Shown here: piece after piece, positions 36,837 through 38,340 of the stretch | How the letters are laid out: the number at the start of each line of letters is the position of its first letter | Numbering within the stretch: position 1 is the first letter of the stretch | Origin: a bacterium | GTDB taxonomy: Bacteria > Patescibacteriota > Minisyncoccia > Minisyncoccales > CG1-02-41-26 | DNA length: 64,000 nt | Direction of reading: 5' to 3' | Assembly (NCBI GenBank): GCA_030616605.1 | Contig: JAUWWY010000003.1 | Coordinates: forward strand, 6,707-70,706 | Program-made: the position numbers and the translations under genes | The notes under the pieces: generated by a model | Told to the model about the DNA's origin: nothing | The model's database searches: none | The model's input: the letters and a program-made list of their open reading frames with translations, nothing else

Positions 36837-38340
<1,504 letters not shown>

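Follow-up and report, generated by a model that had tools for sequence, protein, structure and literature searches.

A 16S rRNA 3′ tail with UUUCU in place of the anti-Shine-Dalgarno core, and native genes without Shine-Dalgarno sites, in a Parcubacteria-like genome

Introduction

The anti-Shine-Dalgarno (anti-SD) sequence is among the most conserved features of bacterial rRNA, and lineages that lack it are therefore natural experiments in how start codons are found. The 64-kb stretch of DNA analyzed here (the window) carries a 16S rRNA gene that reads UUUCU where CCUCC is expected, which raises the questions of whether the change is real, whether a changed code has taken the place of the old one, and what would otherwise mark the starts of genes. 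We favor the reading, at a probability of roughly 80%, that a Parcubacteria-like lineage has lost SD-guided initiation on both sides, with CCUCC changed to UUUCU in the tail and native mRNAs devoid of SD sites. The observations that we report at the level of sequence are the tail and its conservation in the clade, the absence of canonical and variant SD sites, the signals around start codons, the distances from promoter to start, and, for an island of genes, a raised GC content and the presence of SD sites.

Results

The anti-SD core is replaced in an otherwise intact 16S rRNA gene

A full-length, intron-free 16S rRNA gene occupies 36837–38342 of the minus strand (Rfam RF00177, SSU_rRNA_bacteria, 1399.9 bits where the gathering score is 50, model positions 1–1533). 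Its 3′ tail, GAUCAUUUCUUUA (36837–36849, minus strand), departs from the bacterial consensus GAUCACCUCCUUu: the 3′ end of the Rfam alignment sets GGUAGAUCAUUUCUUUA opposite the consensus gGAUcACCUCCUUu, every position being in the top class of posterior probability, and an ungapped re-scan of the 3′ part sets ...GGCACCGGUAGGGGAACCUGUCGGUAGAUCAUUUCUUUA opposite ...GGuagCcguaccGGAAggugcgGcugGAUcACCUCCUUu. As the preliminary description of this DNA had claimed, the core CCUCC has become UUUCU; the three differences are all C-to-U transitions. In plus-strand numbering GAUCA lies at 36849–36845, UUUCU at 36844–36840 and UUA at 36839–36837, and the location given there, 36837–36852, is therefore right when read on the minus strand. 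Helix 45 (CACCGGUAGG-GGAA-CCUGUCGGUA; 36851–36874, minus strand), recognized from the Rfam alignment and from covariation of its arms in relatives, abuts the tail and is intact, as is the GAUCA box; only the anti-SD feature fails, and the gene remains a 16S gene. We dismiss a chance origin of the tail because only 128 taxids, mainly some Flavobacteriia, Mycoplasma and Carsonella, are convincingly without the consensus CCUCCU (Amin 2018, PMC6107228).

The gene is accompanied by a promoter-like site of its own (TTGACA-16-TAAGAT; 38408–38435, minus strand; consensus match), by a predicted leader/trailer processing stem of ~28 bp that encloses the 16S (3′ trailer strand at approximately 36706–36750, minus strand; −52.3 kcal/mol by cofold and duplexfold), and by a terminator-like hairpin with a U-run between the 16S and tRNA-Ile (36680–36705, minus strand; sequence and folding). 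Given the group I intron that relatives have 40 nt upstream, we asked whether CCUCC might be restored by a hidden 3′ exon or intron. We rejected this candidate: helix 45, GAUCA and the tail are contiguous in the window, inspection of the 200-nt interval from helix 45 to tRNA-Ile found no CCUCC, and the only downstream element that contains CUCC is a palindromic terminator hairpin, so the anti-SD is not restored there. When a collection of genome contigs was scanned for the 3′ arm of helix 45 followed by GATCA (GGAACCTGTCGGTAGATCA), two chance matches within protein-coding genes and no 16S gene were recovered.

Several other features of the rRNA region were observed. The rRNA genes do not form one operon, the 16S having its own promoter and terminator (window 33181–36485). 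Between tRNA-Ala and the 23S gene lie a HEPN (Swt1-like) gene (34656–35441) and a gene for a small protein with MscS-type transmembrane helices (33525–34205), the latter at the same position in the relatives L004 and L009. The 5S gene is short, at 109 nt. Within the 16S, the 515–530 region (~37830–37850, minus strand) has GUGCCAGAAGCGUCGGUAA for the universal GUGCCAGCAGCCGCGGUAA, which mismatches the standard 515F primer; a compensating change on the upstream strand, CCGCUAA for CGGCUAA, preserves the 505–507/524–526 pseudoknot, and C1404-G1497 is likewise altered, to U-A.

The altered tail is inherited across a clade

The S2 and DnaK matches of the window are labelled Patescibacteria, with one relative named ‘Pacebacteria’ by its submitter, and the nearest named DnaK matches, at 75–79% identity, are Gribaldobacteria and Nealsonbacteria, the latter a member of the Parcubacteria group. 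Going by these best-match names, the organism is a Parcubacteria-like member of the Patescibacteria (CPR). Relatives were reached through S2 homologues of 64–67% identity, which were traced to their contigs, and five further lineages share the gene order PPDK, pfkB, L25, SLT, RF1, L31, S2, EF-Ts, tRNA-Thr, 16S and onward. UUUCU is present in four of five syntenic lineages and UAUCU in one. The tail of L012 is identical to that of the window, those of L009 and L010 (GAUCAUUUCUUUU and GAUCAUUUCUAUU) also contain UUUCU, and L004, L005 and L006 share GAUCAUAUCUUAC, with UAUCU; the contig of L008, the fifth syntenic lineage, stops before the 16S, and no tail is counted for it.

A metagenome scan with the pattern AACAAGG-h45-GATCAT gave at least 120 matches, and the GAUCAU-type tails of this census are mostly U/A-rich; 18S-like genes were also recovered by it. 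Among the matches listed, the other tails include UUUUU (27), UCUCC (17), UUUAA (8) and UUUAU (6). The matches listed, the window and the syntenic relatives together contain 16 distinct UUUCU 3′ ends with eight fully compensated helix-45 arm pairs, and this covariation identifies them as functional, evolving rRNA genes. The same or a similar tail occurs in independent assemblies from JGI, ENA and NCBI. Its presence in relatives and at 16 distinct 3′ ends shows that the tail is genuine and has been passed down throughout the clade. The preliminary description had named an assembly or consensus error as one way in which its claim would fail. Such an error does not account for the tail, as the relatives show UUUCU or UAUCU and no CCUCC; the comparison of tails across the clade that it had proposed recovered no syntenic relative with CCUCC.

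The syntenic relatives also contain group I introns with LAGLIDADG endonuclease ORFs within their 16S genes (L004, 13755–14547; L010, 18901–19295; L009, about 13246–13674; also L005 and L006), inserted immediately 5′ of helix 45, where ...GAAGUCGU would otherwise meet AACAAGG, and in these intron-bearing relatives Rfam misplaces the 16S 3′ end within the intron. Another CPR group among the metagenome loci (L018, L027, L030, L031, L052, L078, L087 and others) has the tail GAUCAUCUCCUUU(C/U)UAGGGAG, where a partly retained anti-SD, UCUCC, directly precedes its own complement GGGAG. Such a fold-back could mask the anti-SD in the precursor or the mature rRNA.

Native genes have neither canonical nor variant SD sites

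Duplex energies were calculated between the −20 to −2 region of every start and two tails, the canonical one (ACCUCCUUA) and that of the lineage itself, with windows inside the same genes as controls. The pooled native set holds 120 starts from six lineages (the window, L004, L008, L009, L010 and L012), taken from first-ATG or pipeline calls, of which those of rpsB and a purB-like gene needed correction. Upstream of the native genes, pairing with the canonical anti-SD is weaker than at the intragenic controls, both in the window (−1.14 vs −2.35 kcal/mol, n = 37) and in the pooled set (−0.97 vs −2.51 kcal/mol, n = 120), meaning that SD-like sequence is depleted; GGAG, GAGG or AGGA occurs in 9/120 native upstream regions. 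Pairing with the lineage’s own tail averages −1.42 vs −1.57 kcal/mol in the window and −1.27 vs −1.70 kcal/mol in the pooled set, which is no stronger than within genes (one-sided p = 0.99, n = 120), and therefore argues that there is no replacement SD. The preliminary description had proposed computing hybridization energies against both tails, and neither tail is favored upstream of these 120 starts. RGARR, the wobble-tolerant complement of the tail, has no positional peak between −40 and −5 of native starts, and purine-rich k-mers are not enriched upstream of them; TAAT, ATAA, TAAA and AATAA are the ones enriched at −20 to −1. On these duplex energies and on the positional and k-mer analyses of native starts, we rejected a variant SD.

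The eight housekeeping genes that had been singled out as lacking a GGAGG-like site (dnaK, dnaJ, serS, lysS, tsf, eno, trxB and ftsZ) do indeed lack one, their pairing with the canonical tail being worth −0.8 to −2.7 kcal/mol. Native low-GC genes that lack SD sites follow one another over 14805–29969 (minus strand), among them dnaJ, dnaK, grpE, hrcA, murF, serS, lysS, PBP, mreD, mreC and others; in most of these genes U occupies −1 and the upstream region is A-rich. In 47 further anti-SD-less metagenome loci, SD-like motifs precede 9% of 306 starts from crude ORF calls. Metagenome loci whose tails retain CUCC (UCUCC) and those whose tails do not show SD use of 11% and 9%, respectively, in small samples with crude ORF calls.

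The window’s release factor is of the RF1 type (PKT motif) and has no frameshift, so the SD of the prfB frameshift could not serve as an internal test; CPR lies outside the coverage of a published prfB survey. The RF1-type gene itself (40488–41228, plus strand) has PKT and GGQ motifs and encodes only 246 aa, without the N-terminal part of the PCRF domain; the release factors of relatives have 240–245 aa. It overlaps the end of rpmE (40280–40501) by 14 nt. For the rpsB ORF (39467–40327, minus strand), the longest-ORF start, GTG 40327, is wrong and the true start is ATG 40210, which is preceded by TTGAAA-17-TAGAAT; its homologues are 232–249 aa long.

Native starts share a U-AUG context and some promoters abut the start codon

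Once SD sites are set aside, the native starts have a strong context of their own. ATG makes up 99% of the 120 starts, and positions −2 to −6 are rich in A (51–60%) and poor in G (3–12%). T directly precedes the start codon in 86/120 native starts (72%) vs 117/495 internal in-frame ATGs (24%) and 241/1139 out-of-frame ATGs (21%), an excess (Fisher p = 3e-22) that is found in each of the six lineages (58–85%), and T stands at this position in 59% of the 306 crude starts from the 47 further anti-SD-less loci. Only 1/9 island genes (see below) has it. In addition, 40-nt windows centered on native starts fold at −2.06 kcal/mol vs −3.85 kcal/mol inside genes (p = 5e-12). The excess of U(−1) may reflect quadruplet pairing with A37 of the initiator tRNA, a link drawn indirectly because the four tRNA genes of the 64-kb window do not include that of the initiator tRNA-fMet.

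We classed an mRNA as a candidate leaderless one where 6–8 nt separate the end of the −10 box from the A of the start codon, a distance at which transcription would start at the AUG itself. By consensus match, such promoters precede ATG 885 (TTGACA-16-(TG)TAAATT, 6 nt; 892–919, minus strand), rpmE (bL31) ATG 40280 (TTGATT-17-TATAAT, 7 nt; 40244–40272, plus strand) and ATG 1351 (TTGACA-17-GACAAT, 8 nt), and in L009 TTGATT-17-TATGAT lies 8 nt before the L31 gene. Across the pooled set, 8/25 predicted promoters have a spacing of 6–9 nt where ~2.4 are expected (binomial p = 0.0017); at rpsB the −10 box and the ATG are 16 nt apart. We rejected hrcA as a further candidate: no −35 box accompanies its TATAAT, 7 nt from the ATG, and there is an 11/12 promoter ~98 nt upstream. 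The earlier proposal of promoters 6–7 nt from the ATG thus stands for the genes at 885 and 40280 but not for the TATAAT of hrcA. Some promoters 6–8 nt from the ATG, predicted from consensus matches, fit leaderless mRNAs.

All genes of a GC-richer island have SD-like sites

One stretch of the window departs from this pattern. On the 3′ side of tRNA-Lys, and directly adjoining it, composition, Pfam matches, SD sites and repeated upstream cassettes delimit an island (6443–14700, minus strand) with a GC content of ~43% vs ~33% in the native flanks. By Pfam, its genes comprise four or five for WG-repeat proteins, one for a phosphoribosyltransferase (PRTase), purH, purE, one for a purB-like lyase and two unknown ones. 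Sites of the AGGA, GGAG or GGGAG type precede 10/10 island genes (9/9 scored and the tenth after start correction), located 5–10 nt upstream and reading AAAGGAG, AAAGGAGG, AAAGGGAG or AAAGGAAAA. The gene with the corrected start is the purB-like one, whose true start, ATG 13957, is preceded by AAGGAGGAAGAG. It had been claimed that all island genes carry AAAGGAG(A/G); all ten have an SD-like site, but three of the ten have AAAGGAAAA or GAAAGGAUA instead. Upstream pairing of the nine scored genes with the canonical tail is correspondingly strong (−7.93 vs −3.40 kcal/mol, p = 1e-4), and with the lineage’s own tail it reaches −4.98 vs −1.42 kcal/mol. G·U wobble also lets the island leaders pair with the UUUCUUU tail, and AAGGAGA would form seven pairs.

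Each island gene appears as its own unit, with a 75–82-nt repeated upstream cassette that contains a promoter and an SD-like site; five copies are located at the WG-repeat genes and three at purH and the genes for the PRTase and the purB-like lyase. The island genes are separated by terminator hairpins, and the first gene has a perfect 12/12 consensus promoter at 14685–14657. Homologues of purH are widespread in Patescibacteria. At one such locus (L136, 10001–11593), purH is the only GC-rich gene (0.48 vs ~0.36) and the only SD-led gene (AGAGGAGG, −12.7) within an otherwise SD-less pur cluster, and at another (L134, 10001–11524), the same upstream cassette as in the window, with AAGGAG, precedes purH. 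This pattern suggests that purH, or the gene set, moves between CPR genomes with foreign expression signals.

A second GC-rich stretch of the window (~44%) contains a 1367-aa ORF (59889–63992, minus strand) that starts 8 nt from the window end and has a Peptidase_S74 (endosialidase chaperone) domain, which is typical of phage tail fibres.

Discussion

The tail and the native genes together point to a lineage in which SD-guided initiation has been lost on both sides, and from the sequence features above we infer a likely mode of start selection, a mature 16S 3′ end and an origin for the island. Starts would be recognized from an AU-rich, G-poor and weakly structured region around a nearly obligatory AUG, with U(−1) adding a fourth base pair to A37 of the initiator tRNA and with leaderless transcripts serving some operon-first genes; bS1 and initiation factors acting on unstructured RNA would probably contribute. 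The SD-led genes of the island may be recent acquisitions that still bear the expression signals of their donor, and their translation would either dispense with SD recognition or draw on weak G·U-wobble pairing between AAGGAGA-type sites and UUUCUUU.

Is the tail instead an artefact or non-functional sequence, be it an assembly error, a pseudogene copy or spacer, with a working CCUCC in another rrs copy? The window holds a single rrs copy, the mature 3′ end is a prediction, and group I introns 40 nt upstream in syntenic relatives make the rRNA gene structure unusual in this clade, all of which leave some room for such doubts. CPR genomes, for their part, usually hold a single rRNA operon. The tail recurs in independent assemblies from different samples and sources, at the end of a full-length gene (1399.9 bits) with compensatory changes in helix 45 and with its own promoter, processing stem and terminator; helix 45 runs into GAUCA and the tail without a break, CCUCC is absent from the 200 nt before tRNA-Ile, and the lack of SD sites on the genome side agrees with the tail. 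We regard the artefact reading as largely refuted and scarcely credible. A variant anti-SD, in which UUUCU(UU) pairs with a matching purine-rich SD (AGAAA/RGARR) and SD initiation persists under a changed code, can call on the constancy of UUUCU among 16 distinct 3′ ends (among the matches listed) while the helix-45 arms changed eight times, and on the capacity of the tail to pair with purine runs, as in the island leaders (−4.98 vs −1.42 kcal/mol for controls). The native starts speak against it, since their own-tail pairing is below that within genes (−1.27 vs −1.70 kcal/mol), RGARR has no peak from −40 to −5, no purine-rich k-mer is enriched and G is depleted upstream. Moreover, the tail varies among sister lineages (UAUCU, UUUUU, UUUAU, UCAAU and others), and in the survey of Amin et al. 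anti-SD-less organisms are also without SD sites, none of them combining a variant anti-SD with a matched variant SD (PMC6107228). We therefore consider a changed code very improbable, if a little less so than an artefact.

The retention of UUUCU while the arms of helix 45 turned over nonetheless hints at a retained function of the tail, beyond simple decay. Docking on the platform, Era binding or 3′-end maturation may each conserve GAUCAUUUCU, and the KH domain of Era binds GAUCACCUCC. UUUCU, and C1538 especially, is conserved over diverged lineages. In Bacteroidia, bS21/bS18/bS6 dock the anti-SD on the platform; the tail is sequestered there and unused for SD pairing (PMC7797042). Very different U/A-rich tails in other CPR clades suggest, however, that the overall constraint is weak. 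We give such another role an appreciable but minor chance, and it is compatible with the loss of SD-guided initiation rather than exclusive of it. Somewhat more tentatively still, we speculate that anti-SD-less Parcubacteria have rebuilt start choice on a U-AUG quadruplet read by the initiator tRNA and on an unstructured A-rich or absent leader, and have kept UUUCUUU because its changes, all of them transitions, leave it able to form G·U-wobble pairs with purine-rich SD sites. If so, SD-led genes from other bacteria, such as those of the purine-salvage island, would be expressible at once.

For loss of SD guidance itself, the window adds the identity and conservation of UUUCU, the absence of canonical and variant SD sites, and a strong −1 U/AUG context. 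In practice, gene finders that go by SD motifs or by ORF length will mis-call starts in such genomes, and calls of the first start codon are wrong here for rpsB and the purB-like gene; GC-richer SD-led genes could in turn be used as markers of recent horizontal transfer into anti-SD-less genomes. The searchable literature held nothing on the identity or conservation of the replacing pentamer, on a quantitative lack of both canonical and variant SD sites in such genomes, on a dominant −1 U context in them, or on SD-led foreign genes inside an anti-SD-less host.

Within the literature on CPR, Patescibacteria or Parcubacteria and SD, anti-SD or leaderless initiation, we found one relevant study, that of Tsurumaki, Saito, Tomita & Kanai (RNA 2022), in which the CCTCCT motif was found in only 48% of Parcubacteria, the absence of the anti-SD overlaps a subgroup that lacks uL1, and the SD helix was inferred not to form (PMC9297842). 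The window resembles these organisms as a CPR member with no CCUCCU at the 16S 3′ end and with nearest named homologues in Parcubacteria, and since anti-SD loss is published for a Parcubacteria subgroup, it is a further case of a known phenomenon. That study gives the presence or absence of the motif only, whereas the replacing sequences, the SD content of genes, the start context, the leaderless promoters and the SD-led foreign genes are given here. The headline loss is thus already known; newer ground is offered by the −1 U signal and by the foreign genes with SD sites.

Other lineages that have lost the anti-SD are some Flavobacteriia (Chryseobacterium, Elizabethkingia, Riemerella and Blattabacterium), some Mycoplasma, and Candidatus Carsonella and Hodgkinia. 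Lim 2012 is reportedly, alongside Amin 2018, a source for bacteria that lost the anti-SD, and Nakagawa 2017 is said to be one, again with Amin 2018, for SD-independent genomes. The losers among Flavobacteriia, Mycoplasma, Carsonella and Hodgkinia are alike in having a tail without CCUCC, no SD motifs, no variant SD and a clustered phylogenetic distribution, but they belong to other phyla and are mostly host-restricted or Bacteroidota, whereas here the pentamer is conserved in a broad environmental clade. Bacteroidia such as Flavobacterium johnsoniae share SD-independent initiation and A-rich upstream regions with the window, but they keep a canonical anti-SD that is sequestered on the 30S platform (PMC7797042, PMC8710568), whereas here the sequence itself is gone. 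The 3′ end of eukaryotic 18S rRNA (GGAUCAUUA) likewise continues from helix 45 into GAUCAUU without an anti-SD, but this is a resemblance of sequence only, with the same C1535U state, and the rRNA of the window is bacterial. Finally, the strong preference for U directly 5′ of the AUG, at 72% of native starts, recalls systems with extended (quadruplet) codon-anticodon pairing. Pairing of U(−1) with A37 of tRNA-fMet is said to have been described in chloroplasts (Esposito 2003). In E. coli, quadruplet pairing has been demonstrated at scale (Hollerer & Jeschek 2023, PMC10018350), where it is a modest modulator atop the SD interaction, whereas in the lineage described here the putative pairing would be a dominant start-context signal.
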